NCBI GenBank assembly: GCA_050230475.1
Contig: JBFLGF010000032.1
Location: 62,001-94,187 of the forward strand
DNA: 32,187 nt
Source: Ancylonema sp.
Taxonomy: Eukaryota
Direction of reading: 5' to 3'
The notes beneath the pieces were generated by a model, which was not told the DNA's origin, did no database searches, and saw only the letters and a list, made by a program, of their open reading frames with translations. Numbering within the stretch: position 1 is the first letter of the stretch; each line of letters begins with the position of its first letter. The translations under genes were made by a program, and so were the position numbers. Below, piece by piece: positions 2,778 to 28,576 of this stretch.

Positions 2778-3293
2778 CCGGAAAATACATTATTTTGTTT
2801 CCTTTGCCATCACAAAAATATATACTAAAAATAGAGACACAACCGGTGGGTGTCAAGTCTTTACCACCACCCACCCTTTCTTTATGAGAGAACCCAACTT
2901 TTTCTAACCCGGTAATGTCCAAACGACTTCCATAAATATATTTTATTGTCGTCGAACTTATATCTTCTGTTTTTTTCCGACCCAGACACTGTATCTATAA
3001 GTAAAGAACAACATGTGTATGTTGTAAATGTGTATATTCTGAGTATGCTTCCTCTACCACTCTACAATTAACAGCACACTTCATACGCGGCACGCGTGCC
3101 GTACACTCCAATGACCCATCTATGCTTTTATATAACAATATATTGTAGCAGCAATTACATATATTTTTGGTTTCGAACACATCGATTAGTGTATTCAACC
3201 ACCATTTGAAACTTCCCTTGGGGTCGTTTTGGGCTCTCTTCTTCATACGTGAAAATCGTCCCCGTGCGGGAAAATCTAGAAAAAAAACAAAAT

Positions 3294-4981
3294 CGACAAT
3301 TTCTTTTTGGTCGACCATTCACCCTTATTAGTGACCACGCACCCTTGAAGTGGATCATGACAACCACTAAGCTGACAGGCAAGCTGGCACGCTGTGCGTT
3401 ATTGTTGCAAGAGTATGAGTTTGACGTGGTACACCGGGCACGCATCCTTAACACCAACGCAGACGGTTGTAATAGGTGCCCCTTACCAGAAGAAACAACT
3501 CTTGACCACGGAATCGATACCTTGGGAGAGACGACACCCTGCTATCTCTTCCAACCACCACCGATCTCGGCCATCTCACCCAGTTACTTCATCAGCTATC
3601 ACCAGGACTCCACACCCGAGGCGGAACCGATACTTAACATTTGGGATGAAAAACCCGTCATGCATCTGCTCAAAACCCACGAGTATGCTCCTAACCTGAG
3701 TGCCATCGAACGTGACACAGTCTACCGACGAGAATTTAAGTATAAATGGTTAGGTAATCTGTACAAGAAACCCTCTTTTGGCAAATTGTTGCTTGTTCCT
3801 TCACCACCAGAGCGCATGCCACTCATCGAAACCCTTCACAACCGTTATGGAAACTTCGGTGTCAAACGGATTCTTCACGCTTTGCAGCAAGATTATTGGT
3901 GGCATCGCATGGGTGATATGGTTATCCAGCTTATCCGTAATTGCATCGCTTGCTCTCGTTCGAAAACCCACTTCCGTCAGGGACGCACACAACTTCAACC
4001 CTTGCCCATTCGTGGATTGTTTTACCGCTGGGGCATTGATTTTTGTGGTCCTTTTCCACCAACCGCCAAAGGCAACAAGTACATTCTTGTAGCAGTTGAC
4101 CATTTCAGCAAGTGGGCTGAATTCATGGCGGTAGATAAGAGCGCCAAAACCACCTCTGGTGCAGTTTTTGAACCACATCCTAGCCCGCTTTGGAGCACCT
4201 GGGAAGTCATCACTGGCCAAGGATCGGAGTTTGAAGGTGCTTTCCACACCCTTCTCAACCAACATCATATCACCCACCGCACTGCTGGCAGAGACCACCC
4301 ACACTCGGATGGGCTGGCTGAACGCCTAGTACAAACCCTCACGTCCGCCTTGCGAAAAACCCTTTTTAGCGGGCTTCGACAGGGTACACCCCTTACCACC
4401 TGACCTATGGTCGTCACCCTTTGTTTCAAGCCAACAACCAGGACGCCGAACATGACTTTTTACCACTGGACAAAAACCTCCCCAAGTTCCTGGAGGAACG
4501 AGGTAAAGAAGTTATGCCGTTAGCTATGCGGAACTTTGCCATCGCTCAACAACGCGACCGACACCACTGCTTCAAGGTACATGACCGTTATGACAGGCCC
4601 AAGGCAACTTACCACCCCGGAGAGTTCGTCTACGTCAAACGGCAAACCAAAGGTACTTTGGACATCGCAACCCACCCGCAAATCCTGCAGATCACCAAAA
4701 TCCGACCATCAGGGAACGTGCAACTCCACGGTCGCGATGGTCGCCGCATGTGGGAACAGATGACAAATATATCTCCATGCGGTCTCACCTTGAAGGATAA
4801 GAACATCAATGTCACCCGGTTCAATAGATCTGACCCAACCTTTTGCAGAAAATGTGGGGACCGTAAGGACGGGAAAAATATGATCCTCTGTGATAATTGC
4901 AACCATGGATACCACATTTATTGCTTGTCACCACCTCTGACTAGCATTCCCAAAAGGGAGTGGTTTTGTCCGGAACATTAA
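3294..4981 (+). pseudogene. Ty3/Gypsy pol fragment 1: end of RNase H, integrase, C-terminal PHD finger (degenerate, 5' truncated)
   Basis: RNase H end FGRPFTLISDHAPLKW...NADG. Integrase Zn finger LHNRYGNFG...CIAC (second His changed to Asn), WGIDFCGP, ITGQGSEF (second catalytic Asp changed to Gly), DGLAER. Compensating frameshifts at ~4160-4205 and a deletion/frameshift at ~4365. PHD: CRKC-x11-CDNCNHGYHIYCLSPPLTSIPKREWFCPEH. Confidence 0.92.
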
Positions 4982-5140: not shown

Positions 5141-6560
5141 AGGGGGGGGGAGTGAGATCCAGATGATGACCAAAGGCCCAATCTTGATGCTGCTCATCCA
5201 GACAAGCAGCCAAGTCATCAACCGACATCCGTCATTTTCATCGACGCAAAAAAACTATAAAAAGTCAAATTTTGCATATTTTTTCCAAAATCTGTCGATT
5301 CCTTTGTTTTTGAGAGATTTCGTCGACGGACTGTCTGCCGACTCTATCTGGCTTCTCAGCTGTCATGCGGCTAGAGATCGTTAGAAAGTAGAGTCTTTTT
5401 AATTGTTGATCCGCTTGAAAAATAGCAATTTTTGTAAATTGTCGATTTTTAGTCGTTATATCGAATTCTGTCGTTATATGAGTTTCGATCAGTCAGACGT
5501 TTGATTTGATAATTTTTTTACACTCAGTTAATCTAGAAAATTCGGTGTACCGCTTTTTAGATTTTAAGTCGGAGTATTTTGCCGTATCGACGAGTTAGTA
5601 GAGTCCCACTGCGCGCCGAGCTTTATCTCAGTCACCCAGCCAAGCGTTTAATTCGCCGCACGTGTTAAATCTAGAACTCTATAATAGACTGTCACGATTA
5701 GCTATCTAGTCGATATTCGTTTTCTACCTTAGATCAAGATAAGATCTAGATCACCGCGCGTGTGAAACGGCGCGTCGATTGTACTAAAGCCTAAGTCGCT
5801 TTCTGAACTGCCAGCTTCCGCTGTCAGTTTACGCTGTCTGAATTTCAACAACTCTTTGCAATCGCCATCTTTACAATCTCTGTGAATTCGTGTAATCTGC
5901 AATCGTCAACAATCGTTATCAAGTGTGCCGTTTCGCCTTTGATATTCGCTATGAATTTTTGCAAACTTCGCGTCGCTCCATCCAGCCGTGTAAGTTCTGC
6001 GTGAAAAATTGCCTGTTTGCTTGTGTGCGTGCTGTCGCGCATCTCAAGTATTACAAAAAGCCGTGTGCCGTTTCTCATACGCATCGTGTGAAATTCTGCC
6101 GTTGTCATAATTATCGTTACCCTTGCAAAATCGTAACCCTTGCAAGTCGTTGATTGTCAGCCGTTTTGCTGACGTCAGAAATCGTTACAATTAGCTGCAC
6201 CGTTTTGTGCGAGCTCAGTCAGACAATTCACCCTTTGAGCACCTTGCACCCGTTACAGATCTAGTGAATCGTTTTATTCACGACAACGTTTGATTCCCGA
6301 AACCAATAGTGATTGCGCATCCCGTCGCAACCAACTATCATTCATTATGCACCCTTGTAGAAATTCTATAGTTATTTGCCTTGCGTTCTCTTTATTCGTA
6401 GCTGTCACTTGTTGTGAAGTACGATAACCTGCAACGCCTGATTAACCTTAGTGTTGTTTCTAGACCTCCCACCACTAAGCGTTGAGTGCATCTCAGCTTT
6501 CGGCGAGTAGTAGCTACGGCAAACTTCGTTGATAAGTCACATACCGTGCTTGAATTACAT
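5141..6560 (+). mobile_element. Polypurine tract followed by a probable ~1.4-kb LTR/leader starting TG at 5153 (3' boundary approximate)
   Basis: AGGGGGGGGGAG|TG lies ~160 bp after the pol stop. The region is non-coding and shares blocks with 12820-14135 (CTGCCAGCTTCCGCT, CCACTAAGCGT, GTGCTTGAATT). Confidence 0.6.
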
Positions 6561-6744
6561 TCTTGTGTGGTCAGTAGGGATTCAACCTACACCAAATCTA
6601 CTCTAAACTGACCAGCGGAAGAGCTTCTTTACATCGAGGTCTTAAGAAAAGTTTACATAACATTTTTTTTTTTTCTCAATTGATTGTTTCTTATACACCA
6701 TTGTATCGACAATAAACCATAGTAGCACTATTCAGAAGTCAACG

Positions 6745-7524
6745 ATGGGAACCTACGACCATCATTTCTGGACAACCAAGGCTATTGACTCAGAGTATGC
6801 TCTGAGTGACATACAATAAGAGACATATCTTTTGCAGCTTGCTACCAACATCTCCGTCGACTACAAGATCTACAGATTTGGGCAGCTACAACTTATGCAT
6901 AAGAAAACCGAGGACGAGTTCCGACAACTCCCTCTTGACCTCAAGCGACGCCGAGACGAACATCTGGCGGTCATTCGAGTCCATCGACAACGCGAGTGGA
7001 ACAAGATTCAGCTGGTACATCTCACCACAAACTTGGCGAAAGGTGAGGTGACCTGGAAAAATCGAATGTTTCACCGATTCCAGCGAAAACTTACACCAGC
7101 ACCTCCTGTAGCACAACCAATCCCGGCGTACACCAATATGTCGGTAACTAGTACTCCTCAATACCTGCAGATGACCAAGGAATAACACCAAAGATATGTG
7201 CAGGAAGCAACATATGCCAGAGGTGTAGGTTTCTTCAATTCGCTCATGAGTAAGGAAAAGGTGAAACCACAAGAAGAGGTATCGACAGCCCTCACCAAAA
7301 AGTGTGTCACATTCTCACTTGTCGTTGCAAGTCAAGCACCAGGTCTTGTCATCCTTTCACCACCCAAGGTAGAAGAGAAGTGCGCCGTATGTTTTCAACC
7401 AGGTCATATTTGGCAGGATTGTCCCCGTGATCACCTAACCAAAGAAGAGCAAGCGGGCATCCCAGTGGTCTTGCAGAGCAGGGTACCAGCAATTCACTCC
7501 ACAAAACACCAAGCCGGTCATTAA
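6745..7524 (+). pseudogene. gag-like ORF with CCHC zinc knuckle
   Basis: One frame from ATG 6745 with in-frame TAA at 6817 and 7183. CAVCFQPGHIWQDC fits CX2CX4HX4C. It lies directly upstream of the protease. Confidence 0.75.
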
Positions 7525-7555
7525 ACCAGATGCACGCATCACCACCAACTGGACG

Positions 7556-8553
7556 GTGCCTGTCATTGAAAAGAACAAAAAGTTTTTTTCCATAGAAGGA
7601 GTCGAACCCACAGGAGACATAGTTTTGGACACCGGGTCAGGAGATTGCATGATCGGGTTAACCATGGCGAAACAACTCGGCATCACCAAGGCAGACTTAG
7701 ACCCTCGTGAAGAGTACCTCACCTCGTCAGGACAAAACAACACATCTTTGGGAGTCACCAAGAGGGATTACGAGATCACCATTGGACAGGGAAAGTTTAA
7801 AACCACAGTTCCAGTCCGTCTCACTTTGTCACCCTCTGACAAGTACTCGATCCTCTTGGGCAATTCGTTTATTGTCCCCATCGGAGGAATCGTCGATAGT
7901 TGGGGACACCGTTTCCACCACCGAGTGGATTGGGAAGTAAAAGGGGACAGGATGGTATCTGTCACTATCATCACCTATGGGCTCAATGCTACTCATAAGT
8001 TTTACTTGGAAACTTATGGAGTAGTCTACATGAACCAGGGACTTTCACACGACATCACCTACACCACAATGGACACCTTTCTGAAGAACGATGACGAAAC
8101 CTTGTTCGCCACGAACGAGGATGAAGACATTCTTGCAGAATTTGAGTTTTTGGTGGCACAAGAGGGATATGAGCACAGTATTGCCTCAGCGACACCATCA
8201 CGTGATCCAACCACTTTGCCTGTTTATAACCTAGAGACTCAAGAATGGGAACTTGACACCATTCATTATTTGGCAACCCGCAAACACTCCGAGATCCTTG
8301 ATGCACACAAGCTCAAGCTTTTTACCGCAACCAAAAGTCTAGCACAAGTCAACGAGGCAAATGCAACCATTAGAGTCCACAAGCTTAGGTTGGATAGCAG
8401 CATCATGATCCAACATGACATCGACGTTGTGTGCCGACACCCCGTTCCACCCTTGCATTCTAAATGGCAGGGATTACCAATTCGAGACGCGGTTCCGATC
8501 ACCCCTCGGTACGACGTTCGTTTTAACCCTGGCGCATTGCAACGTGGACTTAA
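7556..8553 (+). pseudogene. Retrotransposon aspartic protease plus linker leading into the DNMT domain
   Basis: IVLDTGSGDCMIG active-site motif and downstream ILLGNSF. The frame stays open up to the MITE at 8554. Confidence 0.85.
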
Positions 8554-9127
8554 GAGCATCTCTTATGGTCGCCCGATTCGACTGGCTTGATTTGCGAAAC
8601 GTGACGTCAAAAATTGTACTTCGTGACGCAAATCAAGCTGCCTGATTTCAAGTTGTGTACGGCCGGGAAATTCTGGAAATCGAATTGGGAGGAGGCTGCC
8701 TTACGGGCAGCGCGATTTTGATTTGAATTTGGTGCCACGGTGGCAGTCACGAAACGTTGCCTGACGGATTTTGGCAGATTCGGCGACCTTTCGAACAACG
8801 AACGGTCGGACCAGCGAAACGATTCGCCGGGTCCTCAAGGTTGTTGCCACGCTGGCGATACGAACATCGCTGGCAGCCTCCGATTGGCTCGTCAAATCAA
8901 ACCGGGACATGAGCGAATGTGATTCAAAGTCCCGATTCAGGCCTTGAATCGGGACTTTGAATTACATTTGCTCATGTCCCGATTGTGATTCGGCACGTGT
9001 AAAATCACATCGGTCCGAATTGGGATCCCGTAAGGATTGCTTTCCCGATTCCCAAGTCTGATTCGGACTTGCGCCGTGTTCTGCCGCGAATCACGCCAGT
9101 CGAATCGGGCGACCATAAGAGATGCTC
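8554..9127. mobile_element. 574-bp PIF/Harbinger (Tourist-like) MITE inserted in the retrotransposon polyprotein
   Basis: 39-bp TIR GAGCATCTCTTATGGTCGCCCGATTCGACTGGC(T/G)TGATT with one mismatch. TAA TSD at 8551-8553 and 9128-9130. Confidence 0.93.
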
Positions 9128-9128
9128 T

Positions 9129-9810
9129 AACGTGTGGGATCTTTTTAAAGGAACCAGTTGTGCAAGCCTGACAATCGTCGTAAACGCCAACTACAAGTGC
9201 GGTGCCTACATCAACAACGACATCAACGTCGACGCACGATCCGTGACACGAGCCTTGTTGCCCAAGATCCAAGCACGTCATCCAGGACAACACCCTTCCA
9301 CAACAATTCGAGGATTTGACACTAGATTTTTTCACAATATTTCGCAAATTTCAAATGCTCATCTTGATAGGTTCATCGCAGACAAATGACCTATCGATTT
9401 TATTTTTGCAGGATGGGAGTGCCAAATGGTTAGCAAGGCGGGTAACCAACAGGGGTACAAAGACGAACGGTTCCCATACCCCATACTTCTTCGACCTCAT
9501 CCGCTGCATTAACCACTTGATCAAAGTCCAGCCTTACCCACCCATCTTCGTCTTGGAGAACATTTACCCTTTCGGTGAGTTTCCGAAGGAGATCCAAGAC
9601 ACCACAGTCCTCATCAAGTCATTTCTCGGATACCCCGCAGTTGTCGATGCATGCAGTATCGGCAGTAATGCTCACCGAGTACGATGTCTCTGGACGAACT
9701 TCATACCACCTCATATTCTGGAGTTGGCGATTCCGGCCACTCCACCGTTGAAACCCTTGACTAAGATCCTTGATCTGCACCACAAACCAATAGTCGTCAC
9801 TACAAAGGTC
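9129..9810 (+). pseudogene. C5-cytosine DNA methyltransferase domain (motifs I-VIII) inside the Gypsy polyprotein
   Basis: Motif I LNVWDLFKG. Motif IV region PIDFIFAGWECQMVSKAG (Cys codon 9420-9422). Motif VI FVLENI (Glu 9556-9558). Motif VIII VDACSIGSNAHRVRCLWTN. Lesions: TGA at 9387-9389 and a 7-bp duplication at 9473-9486. Motifs IX-X not seen. Confidence 0.85.
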
Positions 9811-11391
9811 CATGCAGCGTTGTCGTTTTCGGCAGCTTCTCTCACCCCTGCAGAATCACCTGCACCCTCTAGCTTCTCTACTGCTGCCCCTGCAACCAAC
9901 TTAACAGCTGGATCCACCTCTGCCTTCGCCACTATACTAGATCCGCTCGCAACAGTCGACATCTGGTCAATTCATCTTGTCCTAAACTTCCTTAAACACC
10001 ATCGTTACGCTCCGGATTCTACAGCGGCAGCTCGCGACAGAGTGTATCGGAGGGCATTAGGGTATCGTTGGCTGGGTGGGAATGTATATAAAATCTTTCC
10101 TGGTGGTATTATGATGTTGGTTCCCTCTCTCTCTGCGCGTTTAGACTTGATCTTGCGTACGCATCGAGACATGGGGCATTTTGGTATCAATCGGGTAACT
10201 AAATTGTTGCAGAAGAACTACTGGTGGATTAAGATAGAAGCAGACGTGAAGGGAGTCATTGGGAGTTGTTCCTCTTGTGTGCGCTCCAAAGCCACTTTTA
10301 GAGACCCTCGCACCGAGTTGCAACCCCTCCCTATTCGAGGACTTGGGTACAGGTGGGGAGTTGATTTTGCTGGTCCATTTCTTGTGACTAAACGTGGTAA
10401 TAAGTATGTGCTAGTTTTCATTGAGCATTTTACCAAATGGGTAGAACTTGTGCCATTGCCAGATAAATCTGCTGCTGGCACTGCATGGGCTTTGCTTGAG
10501 TTTGTTTTGAGTCGTATGGGAGCCCCTGCTGAAGTTGTAACAGATCAGGGTTCCGAGTTCAAAGGTGAGTTTCAGACCCCTCTATCCCACTGTGGGATAG
10601 ATCATCGCCTTGCCTCCCGTGAGCACCCTCAAGCAGATGGCCTTTCGGAACGCATGGTTCAGACCATGAAGCAAGGTCTGCGGAAGACTCACCTGGAGTG
10701 TGCCACTAACCGAGATCTGGTGTTGCCATACGTGGCAATGGGCTACCGGATGACGCAGCAGAAGGCTCTAGGGTATTCCCCCTTCTACATCCTCTATGGG
10801 CGACATTCCATCTTCCCTGCCAAGATTCAGGAGGTGGAGCATGAGCCGCTACCGGACCTGGATGACCCTGAGGCGGTCAGACTTTTCATTGATGCAAGGA
10901 GCCAAGTGTTCCGCCAGGTTCTTCCCCTCGCTATGAGGAACCTAGCCATTGCACTGCACCGTGTTAAGACGCATTTTCGTCTCGTGAACACTCCTCCCTG
11001 GGATAGGGAGAGGGAGGCTGTGGGGGCCGGGGATTTTGTGCTAGTTAAAAGGCTAACATTGGCCTCCCTGGACGTCCCCACACGTCCTCACATTATACAA
11101 GTCGTGCGACTGAAGGAGAGTGGAGTCGCGGTGCTTCAAGAGCAGGATGGAGCTCAGATAGAGGAGCAGCAGAAAAATGTGGCACCCTGTAGTTTGCCTA
11201 TTCTGGATAATAAGATATACCTAGAAAGATATTTCAGTGGAGATAAGACCAGTTGTCGGGAGTGTGGCAGCAAGAAGAATGAGGAAGCGATGGTACTTTG
11301 TGACAGGTGTCAGCATGCATTTCATACTTGGTGTTTGACACCCCCTCTACGATATATTCCACTATGAGCATGGATCTGTCCTTACCATTAA
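9811..11391 (+). pseudogene. Ty3/Gypsy integrase 2 with C-terminal PHD finger
   Basis: THRDMGHFG...CSSC zinc finger, WGVDFAGP, VVTDQGSEF and DGLSER (catalytic triad intact, 34 residues between D and E), GYSPFYILYGR. PHD: CREC...CDRCQHAFHTWCLTPPLRYIPL*AWICPYH* with premature TGA at 11365 and the likely natural stop at 11389-11391. Confidence 0.92.
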
Positions 11392-11516
11392 GGCCTTGCT
11401 CACTAGGGTGGTGTGTGTGTTTTGGGGGGGGAGTAGTGTGTTTGGAGTTGAGAGGCCTGGCGTGGAGGCATGTATTTTTGGACCTAAGCTTGTGTGCATT
11501 TCATTTTCACATGCTT

Positions 11517-11735
11517 AGGGGGGGGGAGTTGAAACATTTGGTGATGTATGATGGATGATTGATGGATAAAGACTTGTGAAGTATAAGGAAGTTGTGTTGG
11601 GGCCCAAAGGGGTAATAAGCTTGAGGAGTTGTAAAAAGACAAGTAGATAACACCAAAACTAGGAGTTTTGGGTGTATAATATACTGTGAGATGGTGTAGT
11701 TATCTTTGCTAGTAACGATCCTACTCGATACGACA
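11517..11735 (+). mobile_element. Polypurine tract and start of a 3' LTR (TG at 11530; end uncertain)
   Basis: AGGGGGGGGGAGT|TG lies ~125 bp after the integrase stop, the same arrangement as at 5141. The following sequence does not resemble 5153 onward. Confidence 0.55.
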
Positions 11736-12616
11736 AACTATTGGTACTGAAGGGCGTGCTCGTACTGGCTGAGGAGGCTGCACCATGGCTAGAGGAGGTG
11801 GAGGCTCAACATCAAACGACTGCGGAGTAGACGGCAAAGGGCTGGCCAAAGGCTGTCTGGCTAGACACTCTCCAAAACGGTTGCCGCTGATTGCATCCGC
11901 CTCCACGATCACTGATCCATGGCTGCATCCCATACCACGCGTGATCCAACTGCGTCCCTAGCTACGACTCTTGCAGATTGGCGAAGGGTTGCGTCCTCTG
12001 CAGAATGGTGGTCGCTGAGGATGGAGAGGGGAGGCTGGCGCTGAAGCGGCTGCAGGTGACTTCCAAGGGGGTACAACCCAAGGCTTTGAGGCTCGGGGTG
12101 GACGCCAATTACTCGGGCCCTATTTTTAGCTCGCGGCGCCAACGAAGGGTCGTACTGTGTTAAAAAAAAATGCTTGACCCGCAATAGGATCCGTATGTGT
12201 AATAAGTTGGGGTGTCGCTATGGACGTGACAATTGTAAAATGTAGCTTGCCAGATGCTAGATGCAAAAATCGATATGCAATGATGCAAATGGGCACACAA
12301 GTGTCCAGGATAGGATGCAGATATAAACAACCCAACAACAACAAAGACTACTGGCTGTCTAAGATGCCAGATAAGATCAACACACAGTGTTTTTTTTTTT
12401 TTTTTTTGAAGTTTTGAATCCAAGTAATATAACAAGTTCACAGATTTACAGATTTCACAGATTTCTGCACAAATTACAGATTTTGCAACCTGCCAATTCT
12501 ACACGAAACATTTCTTCACAAAATTCACATAATTCTGTAAAACGACACGTAAGTTGACAACTTTCCGTTTTAGATTGTACATATAAATTGGATATTTAAT
12601 TTGTATATATAAACTT

Positions 12617-14741
12617 GGAAAAACTTAACACGCAATTTTCCTTAACATCATGCAGTTGTCAAATCGAGTACCGGCTAATAAATTGGCCGATCGAAACTTG
12701 TCGTAAAAAAGAATCGGATGACGATATTGCCACATCAGCGAAACGAAACATGAGGTTTGGTACCTTCCCTTTCCACTCAAATCGGCTTTCACTTCACCCT
12801 ATACTCCGCCAGCGAGCCATGTCATGACGCTAGAGAGCGCTAAGGCATAAACCCCTATAAATTGATAAAAAACCCTTCTAGATTAATACTCCTCTACAAC
12901 GAGAGTAATCAATACAACGATATCTAGAATTAGTACTTTGCAAATAAAAATAGTGAAGTACGATTTTGTTCGACTCGAAAATAACGCGTGGCGTATTTTC
13001 CAAAGCCTAGAATCCAGCATTTTCAACAAATAGTTGCGTGTCGATTTTTGTAAATCACAAGTCACTTTCGACTTGTCGATAATCCCGGCGATTAAATCCA
13101 GCCGTAGAACTAGAGAAATATCTCGCGCCGTTTTCATCGTAGCGTCGAGATTAAATTGTATTGTTATAGAAGCGAGCCTGTCGTTATCTTCGATAGACTA
13201 ACTCTAGTTAACTCGGCCGGTTAGCACCGCGCAACAACTTTTGATAAAAGACAAATTGTACTTTCAGATCTGCCAGCTTCCGCTATCAGATTGCGCTCTT
13301 AAGAAATTCTTCAACAATCTTTGTGTAATTCTGAATCCTGTGCAATTCTGTGTATTTGTATCCCTTCGCTTACGCGACTTCGCAACGTGCTCGTTTCCTG
13401 TCTGAGCGTGACATCCGTCATCCAGACTGTAAATTGTCCAAATTATCATTTGAAACTTGTGTGTGTGTGTGTGTGTATGTTCAATCCATCTGAATCTGTT
13501 GTTGACGCTCTTTCTGAGCCAGCCTTGTAATCGAGTGTAATTTCTTGCATCGAGTCGCTGACGCTCTCTCTGAGCCACTAAGCGTGTGTGTATGTGCTTG
13601 AATTCTGTCGATTTGCTTACGTTCGCTCCGAACCAGCACTTTCATTGGTTTTATTATCGTGTTTGCTGTCGCTCGCACCGAGCCAGCAATTGTTGTTTAC
13701 ACCTGTCTGCTGACGATTTTTCTAAGCAAGCATCTCTTATCGACGCGCCGTCGATACTTTGACTTTCGCACCTTGATAATCCGCACCAAATTACATTGTT
13801 TGTGTTACAGTATTTTCTACGACTTTAGTACTGTGGTACATCTGTCAGCTTGCCCTCAACTTTAAGTAGTGAATTTCACCAGACCGGTGAGACGTGTGAT
13901 ATATATAATATTGATATCTCAGCAGAGACTCAATTTGCAATACTACTTAGTGCGAGCAGCCAGACCACCAATCCCACTAGAGACCCTTCGACCACCTCAG
14001 ACTATCATCGATACTGGCGCAGTCAACATCATTGCCACATCACCACGAGCATTACCACATGCATCATTCTGAGAAACATCATTACAAAAGTGTCAAGTAC
14101 AACATCCCGGGCGGCCAAATCCAAACCGCACGTCAGCCTTTCACTGCGGGCTATATATCATCCGCACCCTTCAATTTATGCGATCTGCGCGAATTCGCAA
14201 CAAAAATGAAAGCGGAGATACGCTGTGTCATCCTTCTTTCAAATTATGTTATTTTAATCTTATACGACAATTTTTTGACGCTAGAATACATCACAACAAA
14301 AGAAACAGTAAAATGGTTCGAAAACGCGCGCAACCAGCATAACAAGAAGGATTAAAGTCTTTTGTTGATTTTTATATTCTGAATGTACACAAGAATGTCA
14401 TCGCAACAAATTCATCGTAAAACTTTAGAGAATGGTGGGCTTTGCACTCGATGCGGATAAATCGTGGCAGCCAAGGAAGGAAGTAAAGAAAGCGTCGCGC
14501 GTAGTATCGGGAGTGGCAGTGGGTCGGGTGACGCTTATTGACGTACAGCGGCGATTTGCCACTCGCCTATGTCGCGATAAAGCGAGATACTACCAATATC
14601 AAAGACAAAACGATTTCACTCGTGGTACCAAGAGACTACCGGGTGATTTGACGACAAGTTTCGAACGGCCAGAACACCTGCCGGTACTCGATTTGACGAC
14701 TGCATGCGGTTAATGAAAACTGTATGCTGTTAAGTTTTCCC
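12617..14741. mobile_element. Non-autonomous Mutator-like element (MULE) containing a nested LTR-like insert
   Basis: ~90-bp imperfect TIRs beginning GG(A/G)AAAACTTAACA and including GTCAAATCGAGTACCGGC and TCGAAACTTGTCGT. Perfect 9-bp TSD TATAAACTT at 12608-12616 and 14742-14750. Confidence 0.88.
12820..14135 (+). mobile_element. Probable solo LTR related to the 5153 LTR/leader
   Basis: TG...CA ends with flanks GCCA/GCCT. Shares motifs with 5750-5860 and 6470-6560. Removing it brings GCCACATCAGCGAAACGAA and CTGCGGGCT to about the spacing seen in the related MULE at 22155-22258. Confidence 0.55.
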
Positions 14742-17377: not shown

Positions 17378-19405
17378 TCAAGACCGACTGCACCCGTCGT
17401 CGGCGGGCAGGATGGGGGGCATGAGTTTGGCGACCGCGTCAAACTTGGTGTGCGAGTACTTCTTGTGCACCGCCGTCAGACTCCCCTCCCCGCTCCTCTC
17501 CTGCAGGCCCACCATCATCTGCACACACCCCCTCAGCTCCGCCTCCGACAGCTGGGCGTGGCGCTGCAACGTGGGCGTCCATGCCGGCAGTATGCCAGCT
17601 GTCCGTCTGGCGGTGAGCACGGCCGCTGCCGCCACATGGGAGGGCGAGAAGTGGAGCATGGCGTAGTCGGGCAGGCAGAGCTCGGTGAGGACCCACGCCA
17701 CCTGGGTCACCTTGCGGTCTGCCTTGGCCGCCTTGAGGAGTCGGTGTGTGAATACGTAGGGGGTGGGGACGGTGAGATTGAAGTGGAGGGTGTTGAGCAT
17801 CAGCTTCTCCATCCCCAGGATCTGGTCCTTGGTGTACGCGTTGTCGGAGATGTACACGAAGTCCTTCACCTCGGGCGCCCAAATCTCTTCGTACTTGGAG
17901 GCCAGGAGCATGGCCGTCACCCCGACCAGCTGCAGGTTCTTGCGGGTAACCGTGCACAACGACAGGAAGCGGTCGATGAGGTTGGCGGTGAGGTACAGGG
18001 TCTCGGGTAGCAGCTTGAACTTGAGGTGCACCTCCACCAGCCAGTCCAGCAGACTGGCGCGCATCTTCTCGTTGATCTCCGACTGCAGGCACATGTAAGA
18101 GGACGGCACGAGGCTGGACGCCTCCGACTTGCGGTAGAAGGAGTAGATGTCTGCCACGTATTCAGCCACCGCCAGCGGATCACGGACATCCTCCGCGTCG
18201 ATCTCGTCCAACGCGTCACACGCCTCCGCATCGTGCATCTCCGCATCCATGCAACCCACAGCCTCCTGAAACAAGAGTCAGACCATAACAAAGGTCAATC
18301 ATTGCACAACAGAAGGAATGGAATCCTGGCACTTGGGCAGCACATTCACAGCTCTACAGTTCTACAGCTGTCCCATAACTTTGCAAGAAGCAAGGGATGA
18401 TGCAAGACAAGAAGCCGGATCCCACCCCACAGCAGAAGAGCACATGACAGCTGTTCCCATGACAGCTGTACAGCTGTCCATGAACGACAACCCCAAGCAG
18501 AAGGACATGCCAGGTATCCCCACCTCTGCTATGTTTGTGAGTGTGGCCGTCATCCCCTGCTCCTTGATGACAGCCTCCGCAGCCTCCTCTGTGGCAGCCT
18601 TCGCAGCGACCATGGCTGCCCGTTGCGCGCGGGTCATAATGGTGCTCGATCGCCCGCCCCCGCCCCCGCCCCCGCCCGTGCTGCCCGTTTGGGACTGGGA
18701 CTTGGTAGCAGCAGCGGGTTCACATTGACCACTCGCCGCCACTCGGACAGGCAACGAACGCTGAGGCTTCTGAAGAAAAGACAAGGAAAGGAAGGAGGTG
18801 ATGAGGAGGCGAAAGCAGGTGGTCGGAGACGTACATCATGTATAAGAATGAGGAGGAAGAGAATGCGAGAGTGCATTCCCATGCGGGTACCCCGAAGTAC
18901 ATAACCTCACGACCCTTTACACAGCGTATCCAGGACTCGTGCTACAGCTGGCTTGCGGAATGTCGTGCGTAGGGTTGAGGGAGGAGCAGATGTTCACCTT
19001 CTGGACATCTTTGCTCTGCTGGACATTGCTCAAATTTGTGCCAAAAGCTCGCCTGGGAACGCGGACACCCAGGAGACAGCTGTCAGCATATGCTATGAGC
19101 TGTCATGAGCTAACACCACACACTCTGAATGCCATTGCCATCAATCATACAAGCAGATGACCAGCGCGAAGGAAACCATGGCTTCGCAGCCACGGCATAT
19201 CTGTCAGATGAATGCCACTATGGCCTAACATGCAACCGCATGTGACTGCATCTGATACTGACCATTTGAAATCAAACTTATTTACACACAACTTACTCGG
19301 TGATGTCTTTGCCCGAACGGCCAGGAACTACTTTGTCGAGGTTACCGACGTCCGCGAGTGCACGTCTGCCTCCGGCATTGTTGGCTGCGCGAAGTCCAAG
19401 AGCTC
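17378..19405 (-). CDS. CYCB: B-type mitotic cyclin, multi-exon. Supported exons: 19405-19297, 19052-18998, 18769-18524, 18265-17378. Start codon further upstream (candidate ATG 19789, mini-exon 19789-19783).
   Basis: Destruction box RRALADVGN. Cyclin box MRASLLDWLVEVHLKFKLLPETLYL...QLVGVTAMLLASKYEEIWAP...FNLTVPTPYVF. GT-AG sites have compatible phases, GC3 is high, and no lesions were seen. An additional small exon near 19160-19200 cannot be excluded. Confidence 0.93.
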
Positions 19406-23562: not shown

Positions 23563-23844
23563 TGGTTTTAATGATGAAGGCGCAGGCACTTACGCGCCAG
23601 TATTAATTGGCGCTTGGCGCATGTATTTCGAGCGGAAATGCTTCTTGTCTGCAGGGCAGTTAAACGTCCTGGTCACTGCGCATTATTTAATTTTATTATT
23701 GTTTCTTGTCATTGCATTTGCTGTATTGTACTGCGATTTGTTTCATGTTGCGTACCTTCCGTGCCTTTAGACGAGATTTTCTTTGGAATCCATAATTGTT
23801 TTGATTTTTTAACAATGTGGTCAAATACTCGAATATTCGACTAT

Positions 23845-24601
23845 CTTGGAGCGGAAGTCATCGGAACATTTGCGCTCGTCCTTAATGGCTGCGGGGCGGT
23901 CGTTGTTGACAAACTGTCCGATGGTGCATTGACACATGTCGGCGTGTCTTGCTTTGGGTTGGTTGTGATGACCATGATTTATGCCACGGGGCACATCTCT
24001 GGCGCTCACTTGGACCCAGCCGTCACATTCGCATTCTCTGCCGTGCATCGCTTCCCCTGGCCGTAGGTGAGTAGGCCCTATATCGGAGCTGCCGTATCCT
24101 AGCGAGCTTGCCGGCCCTATATCAGAGCTGCGAGTATATACTGGTTATTGTTGAATGTTCACCATGAAGTTTCAGGTTTCAGGTTTCAGGTATCAGGTTC
24201 AAGGATTCGGGATTCAAACAAAACAAAAATAAAAAGTTTAAGAAGAAGCCAGGTCCACTCCCGTTTTTTTTTTTTAAAAAAAAAAAAAATTAAATTTCCT
24301 TCATTTATATATATTTTTATGAAAATGCTAACGATTCAGGGTTTCAATATCTAATCAGAAACTAGTTCCAATGCCCAGAATACTGATCCGTTTGCGAAGT
24401 TCTCATTCTTGGCAGGTCCCCTACTACATGGCCTCCCAAATCATAGCCGTCTTGCGTTTCTCTCGCATCATCTTCCACCCGGTAGTCCACCTTGGCCCCA
24501 CGTTGCTAGCTAGCATTCCCTTCCAGTCTCTGACCCTCGAGTTCTTCCTAACCGCCTTATTGATGGATGTCATCTCCTTTGTTGCAACCAAAAGCAGGGC
24601 G
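23845..24601 (+). pseudogene. NIP: NIP-type aquaporin (NOD26-like intrinsic protein) two-exon relic: 23845-24066 and 24416-24601
   Basis: GAEVIGTFALVLNGCG...MIYATGHISGAHLDPAVTFAF...FPWP*|VPYY...LEFFLT..LMDVISFVATKSRA|GT. First NPA box reads DPA, TAG stop at the exon end, small deletions, and no second-NPA exon found. Confidence 0.88.
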
Positions 24602-24724
24602 GTGAGCTGGTGGGGGGGGGTTTGGTTGAGTTGGCGCCGCTGAGTTGGCACTTTTCAGCTGGGTGGCAGGCAGCATGAGTCGTCAAGACTTTGGAGGTGC
24701 CAGCTGGCACTTTCGCATGCCAGC

Positions 24725-25128
24725 TAACATGAACTCATTGTGCGCATGTCATATACCTCTCTCCTGTACCCTAAGTAACATGAACCGACCGTGCTCATGT
24801 CATTTACCTCACTCCAATACCCTAAATGACATGAACTGACCGTGCTTATGTCATTTACTCCACTCCTATACCCTTAATCACCAGAAGTAAATGTGCGCAT
24901 GCATATACCCCTCTCTTGTACCCTAAATCACGTGAACTAAATGTGCGCATGTCATATACGCCCCCTGTACCTTGAATAACATGAACCGACCCTGCGCATG
25001 TCATATATCCTCTCCCGTACCCTAAATAACATGAACCGACCGTGCGCATGTCATTTACTCTTCTTCGGTACTTTAAATCACTTGAACTAAATGTGAGCAT
25101 GTCATATACCCCCCTCTTGAACCCTAGA
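24725..25128. repeat. Minisatellite of eight ~51-bp units
   Basis: Consensus close to TAACATGAACCGACCGTGCGCATGTCATATACCCCTCTCCTGTACCCTAAA, with a variant unit starting TCAC.TGAACTAAATGTG. Confidence 0.9.
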
Positions 25129-25220
25129 ACTAAATCTAATTGTGGTCTTGGTGGAAGAGTGGTGGTGTACATGCTCTTCGTTCTTCACCTTTGCACAGTG
25201 GTGTGATTTGTCAAGCCCTT

Positions 25221-26211
25221 GTGAACATAGTACTATTCCATAGCTTTACAACAAGAAATGAAATGAGGAGCCAAGTGCTTGGAATTGCGAATTAAGCTTC
25301 ACCAAGCTAATGACGAAACTTAAAGATTTTGAATTTACTTCTTTTCTTCGTACTCGCCGAATCGATCGGACGAAATTGGTACAAAAGATGAGAGATGATT
25401 TCCGATGTCGAGGTCGGTGATGAAGCGGACGTTGGAATGGTTGCGGAAGTACGCAAGGCCCCTCTTGTGATCGTAGTGAACGCATACAAACTCTACGTAA
25501 CGAGAGCCGGGTTCGTCGAAGGACGCCTGAAGAACCGCCGCGCTTTCGTTCCACGCCTCCATTGAAACCTCGCACGTGCCATCATAAATGATGACGCTCA
25601 TCACTTGGTTTCCGTTGCGGGTCGAATGTAGTTTTTGGATGTCGCCGATACAAACGTTGACGTTGTACAACTGGGGGAAAAAAAAACCGAAAAAATGTTA
25701 AGGTCGGATGAAGGATTATAAAGACATGAGAAATATGACCCATCAAACAAATCACGAAGAAGAACGTTGTCATATTTCCCACGAAAAAAGCCTAAAGAAT
25801 TGTTATGGTCGGAAATACAAATTAGACACATTTTTGAAGCGTGAACATCGAACAAACCCGAATGTAGAAGGTTGTCATCTCCTCCATGCACATTATACTA
25901 GTCCATTGACTATTTATGGATTCATTTGCAAGTAATTGTTCGGAGAATGAAATAATCTTACCCCCTCTAGAGTCTTGAACTCCTTCAACGATGGGTTTGC
26001 TTTGCGCTCAACGAATTCGATGGAGGGCGGGCATGGCAACACAAAAATGTCTTCGTTGATTTTGACATCGACCTTTGATCCCCATGGGTTCCACCTACAA
26101 CCCAAAAAATATGTGTTAGAGTATTTCCGAGAAATCGAAAGGGAAGCAAGTAATACAAGCACACGAGATACAAGACGAGAGACAAGCACAACACAAGCAC
26201 ACAAGATACAA
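25221..26211 (-). repeat. Left arm of a ~1-kb inverted duplication (partial copy of the OB-fold-like gene)
   Basis: Reverse complement of 27221-28225. The ORF translations of both arms are near identical (WNPWGSKVDVKINE..., NVNVCIGDIQKL...MEAWNESAAVLQ). Confidence 0.92.
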
Positions 26212-26910
26212 ATCTCTTTCTGAAAAAAAAAATCAAACAATTCCAACTTGAAGTAGCTAACATACAGCCAAAGAATATCTTATGTTGTTCGGACATGATG
26301 ACTTGTCCAAGAATGCCTTTTTTTTTTTTTTTTTTTTTAATTGGGAAACAGATTTGCATTTTCTGAACATCGATGATGCAGATAGAGTAGTATCCCATGC
26401 ATCCCGCAACAACAACACCTGTGAAGGTGCAATTTCAATCTCGTACTACGCATGTCATCGTCGAAAGTGTTCGTTTAGGTCATAACTTTGAATTGTCACC
26501 ATTTCCATTCGTTTTGTAAAGTGCATAAGATTTCAAAAAACGTCACCCGGTGCTGCAAAAAAAAAAAAAAAAAAAAAAAAACTTCTGGCAAAAACTATGC
26601 AGCCATATTGCTCTGATATGCCAACACACGAGTAGGTGTCCTCACAACGCACTTGTGATTGCAAAATTGATTCCTATTAGGTGAAACCCCCCAGACCTAA
26701 GATGGAGCCAGCTACTCAAAGCCAAGATAAATTCAAGGTACTTTGTTCTTCTATTTATATGTCGAACAACCATTTCATATGTTTCGACCTCCGAGCTTTC
26801 AAATTCCTCGATTTCAACTTGAGTTGTTGGTTTTTTGAATTCGAAATCTTTGCTTTTTTGACGCTTTGATTCGACAGGATCGTATCCTAACAAAAAAAAA
26901 AAAGTTCTTT

Positions 26911-28125
26911 ATGCAGCCCCTTGTGGTGACCCTCGCGACATGTGGTGAGGAGGCTTTGCACAAGCAAATATTCATCAAAGTAGACCACAAGTTCCCGCCG
27001 TTTGTGGTAAAAGTGAATGACGTGTGGCTTACCGTGGCTCAACTCGAGGACACCGACGTGAACGACAGCCACGTTTTCTTGAGGCGGGAGTTTCCCGGGA
27101 AAAACGAGAAAGAGATGGGCGAAGCAAAGGCGTGGATAGCTCTGATATCCATCCCCGGAAGTAAGCAAATAGTAAACGTAGAATTTACAGTTATGTAAGT
27201 GAACATCATCACCAGTTGAATTGTATCTTGTGTGCTTGTGCTGTGTTTGTCTCTCGTGTACTGTATCTCGTGTGCTTGTATTACTTGCTTCTCTTTCGGT
27301 TTCTCGGAAATACTCTAACACATATTTTTTGGGTTGTAGGTGGAACCCATGGGGATCAAAGGTCGATGTCAAAATCAACGAAGGCATTTTTGTGTTGCCA
27401 TGCCCGCCCTCCATCGAATTCGTTGAGCGCAAAGCGAACCCATCGCTAAAGGAGTTCAAGACTCTAGAAGGGGTGAGATTATTCTATTCTCCGAACAATT
27501 ACTTGCAAATGAATCGATAAATAGTTAATGGACTAGTATAATGTGCATGGAGGAGATGACAACCTTCTACATTCGGGTTTATTCGATGTTCACGCTTCAA
27601 AAATGTGTATAATTTGCATTTCCGACCATGACAATTCTTTAGGTTTTTTTCGTGGGAAATATGACAACGTTCTTCTTTGTGATTTGTTCGATAAGTCATA
27701 TTTCTCATGTCTTTATAGTCCTTCTTCCGACTTTAACATTTTTTTGGATTTTTTTTTTCCAGTTGAACAATGTCAACGTTTGTATCGGTGACATCCAAAA
27801 ACTACCTCCGACCCGCAACGGAAACAAGGTGATGAACGTCATCATTTATGATGGCTCGAGCGAGGTTTCAATGGAGGCGTGGAACGAAAGCGCGGCGGTT
27901 CTTCAAACGTTCTTCTACAAACCCGGCTCTTGTTACGTGGAGTTTGTATGCGTTCACTACGATCATAAGAGGGGCTTTGCGTACTTCCGCAACCATTCCG
28001 ACGTCCGCTTCATCACCGACCTCGACATCAGCAATCATCTCTCAACTTTTGTACCACTTTCGTCCGATCGATTCGTCCGATCGATTCGGCGAGTACGAAG
28101 AAAAGAGGTAAATTCAAAATATTAA
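26911..28125 (+). pseudogene. Spliced gene of unknown function with OB-fold-like (RPA/ssDNA-binding-like) segments. Exons ~26911-27194, 27340-27472, 27763-28125.
   Basis: Phase-compatible GT-AG junctions (AT|GTAAGT...TAG|G, GGG|GTGAGA...CCAG|TTG). TRNGNKVMNVIIYDGSSEVSMEAWNESA resembles the OB-fold D-x-S/T-x-x-hydrophobic-x-x-x-x-W pattern. A 13-bp duplication at 28060-28085 shifts the C-terminal frame. Confidence 0.45.
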
Positions 28126-28576
28126 AGTTTCGTCATTAGCTTGATGAAGCTTAATTCGCAATTCCAAACACGTGGCTCCTCATTTCATTTCTTGATGTTA
28201 AGATATGGAATAATACAATGTTCACCATCACGGTATTTGCCATTGCATACAATTAGTTCCTTTGCAATACAATTGGCCTCTTTGATGTTTTTGTTGTTGT
28301 TGTTGTTGTTTTTGTGGTTTGATGTTTAACTATGGTGTTGCAATAACGTGGTGCAGATTTACTGCCGTGGACAACTACCTCAAGGAAGCTCAAAATCCAC
28401 ACCAACGAACTCAGAAATAGAGAGTTTGGGTAGAAATCGAATACGTCGGCGAATGCAGTGTGCAAGCTCTCCAAAAGGGGGGGGAAGAGTTGAGAGCAAA
28501 AGCCTGTTTCCAAGATGGCGATAAGCTTTGTATGCCACTATTTCGAGAACTGCATATTTTTGTTTTCTCGTTATTC

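Follow-up and report, generated by a model that had tools for sequence, protein, structure and literature searches.

The stretch analysed here, 32,187 nucleotides from Ancylonema sp. (contig JBFLGF010000032.1 of assembly GCA_050230475.1, positions 62,001 to 94,187, hereafter the window), raises the question of whether a Gypsy retrotransposon carries its own cytosine DNA methyltransferase (DNMT) together with an integrase bearing a PHD finger, as had been proposed from the sequence alone for positions 6745-11391. The window element is most likely a dead, likely chimeric Gypsy copy whose Pol includes a DNMT3-like cytosine methyltransferase, and a new member of the Gypsy-Dnmt3 group described from Klebsormidium. 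The order given by the sequence-only reading, namely gag with a CCHC motif, protease (PR), DNMT, a break, integrase (INT), PHD finger and polypurine tract (PPT), is borne out by translation and Pfam. The element also reaches beyond those limits, since the repeat at 5153-6606 and an upstream half at 3210-4981 belong with it. Across the window the reading order is RNase H (RH)-INT-PHD-PPT-B-A-gag-PR-DNMT, A and B being the two parts of the repeat, followed by a second INT-PHD, and one B-A repeat bridges the 3' half of one unit and the 5' half of the next.

Relatives of the domain were obtained by a metagenome scan, with 402 pattern matches and 279 confirmed, the best 80 of the 279 being the L-numbered loci, and by a profile-free search with 70 matches (P-numbered proteins), three of which (P0018, P0047 and P0050) are repetitive non-homologues and were excluded. 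The DNMT domain of the window (9129-9798; this and all other parts of the element with a strand lie on the forward strand) comprises motifs I-VIII. Motifs I, IV (with its Cys), VI (EN) and VIII (RxR) occur in order, at the sites where they had been placed: DLFKG at 9138-9152, GWECQ at 9411-9425, ENI at 9556 and AHRVRCLWTN at 9670-9699. Three lesions were recognized, a miniature inverted-repeat transposable element (MITE) of 574 bp, a tandem duplication of 7 bp (9473-9486) and, between the two, a stop at 9387. When these are read through as X, a profile of 28 relatives, from which the window rows and P0001 had been left out, gives the domain 174 bits, the maximum among 200 shuffles being 1.6 bits, and the reconstructed 9129-9810 peptide is thereby recognized as a C5 methyltransferase. 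The Pfam search that had been suggested was less clear, since the N-terminal piece matched PF00145 weakly (E 0.0017, below the cut-off) and the C-terminal piece had no match, and direct PDB searches with each window piece separately returned no methyltransferase. A 31-row profile ranks DNMT3A (1e-21), 3C and 3B first, then DRM (1e-13 to 1e-10), with HaeIII/HhaI (1e-8) and DNMT2 (1e-7) at lower ranks, and the predicted structure of a relative, L002 (pLDDT 93.4, not the window copy), is best matched by DNMT3B, 3C and 3A, with a TM of 0.73. Because the motif order is not rearranged, the domain is DNMT3-like and not DRM, and by profile ranking and the modelled fold of the relative it is a C5 methyltransferase of the DNMT3 type.

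The nearest relative, P0001 (69%), carries motifs IV-X and matches the window no further than 9798, therefore the window copy is without motifs IX-X, reverse transcriptase (RT) and RH; motifs IX-X are present in P0001 and in the 31 of the 80 loci that have a stop-free DNMT domain. Upstream of the domain lie gag (6745-7524), with in-frame stops at 6817 and 7183 and a zinc knuckle at 7378-7425 that Pfam matches weakly (E 0.059), and, in frame +1 relative to gag, an open reading frame (ORF) at 7439-8590 that holds an aspartic protease (7592-7870; PF13650, E 1e-6), the protease and its linker occupying 7439-8553. This linker aligns with P0011, P0014 and P0027, and is separated from motif I by the MITE (8554-9127), which has a TAA duplication at either side and terminal inverted repeats with 49-nt arms that are 92% complementary, and which we take to be Tourist/PIF-like. 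On the other side, a junction zone without RT and RH (9799-9950) leads into the RH-integrase linker of probably another family and then into the downstream integrase and PHD finger (9951-11391; H2C2 at 10132-10293, core at 10348-10629, PHD from 11254, stop at 11365), with Pfam matches to H2C2 (6e-13), rve (1e-11) and PHD (7e-8). The upstream 3' half (3210-4981) holds the end of RH, an integrase and a PHD finger, with a frame break near 4370-4400 and matches to RT_RNaseH (8e-9), H2C2 (4e-12), rve (4e-7) and PHD (4e-13); judged by the shared repeat and by codon composition, it and the gag-PR-DNMT half probably belong to one family. A (TA)n tract of about 390 bp, at 2390-2780, lies just 5' of this truncated upstream element.

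Contigs of four runs (X1-X4, from at most three samples and two studies) were aligned to window positions 5500-12500 and, as the best run has only 0.30 of the window's words, they are regarded as relatives of the window copy and not as the copy itself. At the MITE site, two contigs in X1 and two in X2 omit 577 bases, and P0011 and P0014 align through the same site at 51% identity. Protease and DNMT are therefore contiguous in the family, as the sequence-only reading had anticipated for other genomic copies. Likewise, the 7 bases at 9473 are absent from 14 contigs of X1 (depth 24255 of 25199), seven of X2 and one of X4, and the PHD stop at 11365 is not present in the other copies. The end of A at 6606 is joined to the start of B at 5153 in 29 records of X1 (loose end at 6595), and also in X3 and X4. 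The summed contig depth of repeat A exceeds that of the coding part by a factor of approximately 10-25, a figure that is not a copy number.

Among the relatives the methyltransferase occupies two positions, exemplified by P0089, in which gag-PR-DNMT-RT-RH-INT-PHD forms a single protein of 2300 residues, and by P0079, with the order RT-RH-DNMT-INT-PHD. A PR-RT-RH-INT order with a DDE integrase is found in P0089, P0094 and in loci of the scan. In the best 80 loci, RT lies behind the DNMT in 40, a protease lies before it with nothing detected after it in eight, RT or RH precedes it in 23, an integrase follows directly in three, and six could not be placed; at 74 of the 80, the DNMT is flanked by retroelement domains whose order is fixed. 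These loci belong to 16 families and are not independent, because 39 of them are a single family. A PHD finger follows the integrase in 43 of the 44 loci long enough to judge, and the pairing of a methylation writer with a histone reader that had been supposed for this lineage is thus supported. The solved PHD fingers nearest to it are those of CHD4, KMT2C/D, UHRF1, ATXR5 and KDM5, and PHD fingers of these types mostly read unmethylated H3 tails. In trees with one row per family (rows more than 90% identical were dropped from the integrase tree, leaving 30 of 42), the RT-RH-DNMT-INT type forms one clade both for the DNMT (89/95) and for the integrase (95), a pattern compatible with a single capture plus one move, or with related enzymes having been captured twice. 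The DNMT of the window clusters with P0001, P0036, P0019 and P0032 (100/99), apart from the large family. A search of viral contigs with P0001 yielded three pattern matches, none of which was confirmed. Six further proteins (P0075, P0063, P0042, P0101, P0103 and P0105) are of LINE type and carry, in one ORF, endonuclease, RT, PHD, a PCIF1_WW-like domain, DNMT and RH, making up a non-LTR element that combines a related cytosine methyltransferase with a further, methyltransferase-like module; two of the six also have an OTU protease, and the word 'PCIF1' occurs 0 times in the available text of the preprint 10.64898/2026.05.21.726589.

The repeat bears on how such elements are copied. In the window, a PPT (5141-5152) runs into part B (5153-5358), which has the PPT at its start and CA at its end; part A (5361-6606) begins with TGTCATG and is the likely site of promoter and transcript start. 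Between them lies a CA-GC-TG junction (5357-5365, CAGCTGTCA), a likely integrase attachment site. The layout A-coding-B-A-B is complete in L008, L014, L033 and L065, in which B begins at the PPT, and the window family displays only the B-A of the window plus the A-B join in other copies. The window copy has lost its own ends, and the TG...CA ends and the target duplication are known from relatives of a moss family, that of L008. There, all 18 of the 5' ends (13 distinct sites) begin with TGTCATG, exactly as A does in the window, with no B ahead of them, the 3' ends terminate in CA, and a 4-bp target duplication is perfect at five of seven distinct sites. The CA-NN-TG that sits between B and A matches these integrated ends. 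Of 40 loci, 20 have the pattern CA[GA][CT]TGTCA within 3.5 kb 3' of the PHD finger, against an expectation of 2.8; 11 of 14 families and both domain orders are represented, and in L077, which has the second order (RT-RH-DNMT-INT), the 5' repeat begins exactly at the TG of the junction. The junction GTCACGACAGCTGTCATGCCC is identical in L022, L026, L028 and L036, all of the second order, and in the L008 moss family, though their proteins are distant.

A likely self-primer stretch at 5815-5831 is complementary to 6604-6621, the likely primer-binding site (18 bases) immediately behind A, with 17 matches and one bulge, a score that none of 300 shuffles reached. Among the 5' repeats of the moss family, a comparable self-complement is present in 15 of 17, about 32 nt downstream of a TATA box, a layout as in Tf1-type self-priming. 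No tRNA gene was found within the window, and self-priming was preferred to a start from a tRNA primer. Taken together, the internal CA-NN-TG junction that matches the integrated ends and the self-priming complement suggest insertion from an opened two-LTR circle, LTR denoting a long terminal repeat. Copies of the form A-coding-B are not taken as products of one-LTR circles, because L033 and L055 share flanks and yet differ (B-A-B versus B). DIRS and Ngaro elements have a tyrosine recombinase and make no target duplication; an rve integrase and 4-bp duplications were found instead. Elsewhere in the window, at 13185-13359, a partial and diverged copy of repeat A (65%) keeps the stretch that matches the likely self-primer and is possibly the repeat of some related family.

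The reading that we favour, with moderate confidence, is that of a Gypsy Pol with a DNMT3 between protease and RT, whose active copies would likely methylate their own cDNA and whose PHD finger would likely steer insertion. The RNA would start in A and prime itself at the site behind A, the PPT would prime the plus strand at B, and the resulting B-A...B-A cDNA would close into a two-LTR circle, which the DDE integrase would open at the internal CA-NN-TG palindrome and insert, giving A-coding-B-A-B. The Pol-borne methyltransferase would travel in the particle and mark the cDNA, probably at CG sites; thus marked, it would enter the genome resembling host DNA, at places towards which the PHD on the integrase would steer it. 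There are precedents for two of these steps, since the integrase of foamy virus cuts palindromic two-LTR junctions (PMC1180852, in the text available) and Symbiodinium enzymes related to the DNMT methylate CG de novo in yeast, according to the accessible text of PMC5890265. Wider still, and in our view tentative, with the chances rather against it, is the proposal of a single, old green-lineage Gypsy clade extending from algae to Sphagnum, with an active DNMT3 and a PHD finger and with its integrase attachment sites shifted to the middle of the LTR, that primes itself, methylates its two-LTR circle and inserts it through an opening at a conserved CA-GC-TG palindrome.

Several observations weigh against the favoured reading. 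In motif IV, a Glu occupies the position of the Pro of HhaI in the window copy and in 52 of the 80 relatives, counts that are biased because the scan patterns demanded such motifs. For the release of the DNMT by the element's protease, which the sequence-only reading supposed, no cleavage site was identified. Depletion of CpG is not strong (observed/expected 0.73 in gag-PR, 0.98 in the DNMT and 1.4 in the repeat), and the Klebsormidium element KnitGypsy-Dnmt3 gave no methylation in yeast, a result that its authors hold inconclusive (PMC5890265, as far as its text was available). The ratio of nonsynonymous to synonymous substitution (dN/dS) of the DNMT is 0.27-0.50 in three moss pairs, similar to that of RT. 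Since the available text of PMC9940879 describes a PHD finger on a Chlamydomonas Gypsy without a listed DNMT, writer and reader need not cooperate. As for the circle, a simple model expects A-B-A-coding-B copies too, and none of the 18 moss-family 5' ends (13 distinct sites) is of this kind; at the two remaining duplication sites, three of four bases match at one and the flanks do not match at the other; and the junction motif was picked after two families had been seen, with loose matches in two families. Finally, none of the relatives found is an intact element of the subfamily to which the window copy belongs.

The Glu of motif IV, the slight CpG depletion and the silence of KnitGypsy-Dnmt3 in yeast would equally be expected if the domain were retained for some non-catalytic or RNA-directed function, such as binding of cDNA or RNA, shielding of cytosines or acting as a decoy for a host factor. 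We regard this as rather unlikely, as the Cys, Glu-Asn and Arg motifs show little or no variation even among distant relatives, and fold and profile point to DNMT3 and not to DNMT2. The favoured reading is further backed by purifying selection on the DNMT in relatives, dN/dS being 0.06-0.14 in four unsaturated non-moss pairs (two pairs are saturated). The weak Pfam support for the window pieces taken alone might also suggest a fragment or processed pseudogene of a host DNMT3 gene caught between unrelated transposon pieces. This is largely refuted and in our estimate highly improbable, because the domain has no introns, the protease linker continues into motif I in other copies, and the fixed domain order at 74 of the 80 loci places the DNMT within retroelements.

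A distinct matter is whether the window copy is one element, given the caution voiced earlier that its DNMT and downstream integrase might come from different families. A simple internal deletion within one element would account for the single open frame (9247-11367) shared by the C-terminal half of the DNMT and the downstream integrase, and of the two integrases it is the downstream one that stands nearer to intact relatives, for instance P0089 (54%); furthermore, the two window integrases, 48% identical, are sisters at a support of only 83. Against this, composition at four-fold sites differs between gag-PR-DNMT and the downstream integrase at p=5e-5, compared with p=0.04 for the upstream integrase, and among 16 within-element controls the lowest p was 0.004, three falling under 0.05. 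In addition, the upstream PPT runs directly into the 5153-6606 repeat, whereas the sequence beyond the two PPT-like runs behind the downstream integrase (11421-11434 and 11516-11529) is unlike it. The integrase tree, with 30 rows, did not settle which window integrase pairs with the DNMT. On the four-fold-site composition the caution looks right, and the copy is probably a chimera in which the DNMT end is fused to an INT-PHD from another family, a simple deletion being unlikely.

The sequence-only reading had further considered a land-plant host, on the basis of a NIP gene, and hence an extension of such elements to a new lineage. The window is likely from a streptophyte alga, judging from the tree of one gene, a cyclin B (17378-18835, reverse strand) with cyclin boxes of about 870 bp in one GC-rich exon (63% GC). 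Its top named matches (17378-18277) are Mesotaenium (66%), Sphagnum (64%) and Klebsormidium (63%), and another match at 66% is presumably Spirogloea, from the format of its identifier. The window protein falls outside the land-plant branch, which has a support of 100/100, and approximately unbiased (AU) tests on 15 of 25 rows, in which hornworts, Chara, Coleochaete and seed plants are unrepresented, reject its grouping with mosses (p 4e-5), with Riccia (3e-7) and with ferns and a lycophyte (6e-8), a position as sister to land plants not being rejected (p 0.055). Streptophyte algae also have NIPs, as stated in the accessible text of PMC7289719, and a land-plant host for the window is thus not upheld. 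The extension to land plants stands by another route, that of the relative L008, in which a PLS-DYW PPR gene lies about 2.3 kb behind the element and encodes a protein 99% identical to one of Sphagnum magellanicum and 95-96% identical to four other Sphagnum proteins; two other loci of that family, L010 and L030, are accompanied by MYB-CC and NAC genes. In L008 the DNMT is free of stops and sits in an 820-residue DNMT-RT-RH frame, the element being broken elsewhere.

Other features of the window were also recorded. A relative of the window cyclin B, 82% identical, is likewise a single ORF. At 23836-24620 (forward strand) there is a remnant of a NIP-type aquaporin (MIP, E 2e-14), whose first exon ends in a stop and whose first NPA box is altered; its matches are named only as 'Streptophyta'. 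A tandem array of a repeat of about 51 bp, with at least eight copies, lies at 24699-25144, and an inverted duplication at 25221-28225 (about 1 kb, 92%) has ORFs with a weak OB-fold match (E 0.052).

Gypsy elements with a DNMT3 are already in print (PMC5890265, 10.64898/2026.05.21.726589 and PMC12344493, in their available text), fusions of PHD fingers to transposons are known in general (10.1101/2021.11.30.470311, likewise), and, according to the accessible part of a review, land plants such as tracheophytes have no methylase-encoding transposons (PMC6338049). New beyond the literature searched are the PHD pairing, the two DNMT positions, the Sphagnum-adjacent family and the CA-NN-TG junction with its self-priming complement; the search, with most subscription journals, Repbase and theses outside its scope, found no report of moss copies, of the PHD rule, of the second order or of the junction mechanism. 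The role of retrotransposon DNMTs is presented as an open question in the available text of PMC5890265, and the window copy, although dead, leads to many stop-free relatives and to moss copies that make it testable. A defined junction and primer would explain DIRS-like repeats in an element with a DDE integrase. If the opening of circles were the normal route, two-LTR circles would no longer be mere by-products, and such elements would escape annotation tools that look for paired LTRs. If all of this were true, a DDE retroelement would routinely integrate from circles and pre-install its own methylation, in a land plant, a group described as lacking elements of this kind.

The nearest systems described so far are compared through the text available for each. 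The EpiLTRs of Cymbomonas and Euglena are likewise LTR elements with a cytosine methyltransferase and a chromatin reader, but their enzyme is sister to DNMT4, an adenine methyltransferase is added and the reader is a chromodomain and not a PHD finger (10.64898/2026.05.21.726589). Gypsy-7a_cRei and REM1 of Chlamydomonas share the green-lineage Gypsy backbone, the PHD finger and a proposed insertion bias, and differ in having no DNMT among their listed domains and near-conventional LTRs (PMC9940879). SymbioDIRS-Dnmt3 of Symbiodinium resembles the present elements in its DNMT3 within Pol, two domain orders, purifying selection and split direct repeats, and departs from them in its tyrosine recombinase in place of a DDE integrase and in an unrelated host and RT lineage (PMC5890265). 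The precedent in dinoflagellates and charophytes on which the sequence-only reading relied therefore exists, and it is closer than was claimed, since KnitGypsy-Dnmt3 of Klebsormidium nitens (de Mendoza et al. 2018; 'Gypsy-DNMT3' in 10.64898/2026.05.21.726589) is itself a Gypsy, and its repeats are arranged in the same way. No named Klebsormidium element was found among the matches to the window family, and KnitGypsy-Dnmt3 is compared by description only, the available text of PMC5890265 naming no PHD finger, second domain order, land-plant copy, attachment junction or priming mode. By that description, it shares with the window family an intronless DNMT3-related domain inside a Gypsy Pol, the lack of the DRM rearrangement, a streptophyte host and DIRS-like split repeats, the A-coding-B-A-B layout being given for DIRS and called 'the same' for KnitGypsy (PMC5890265).

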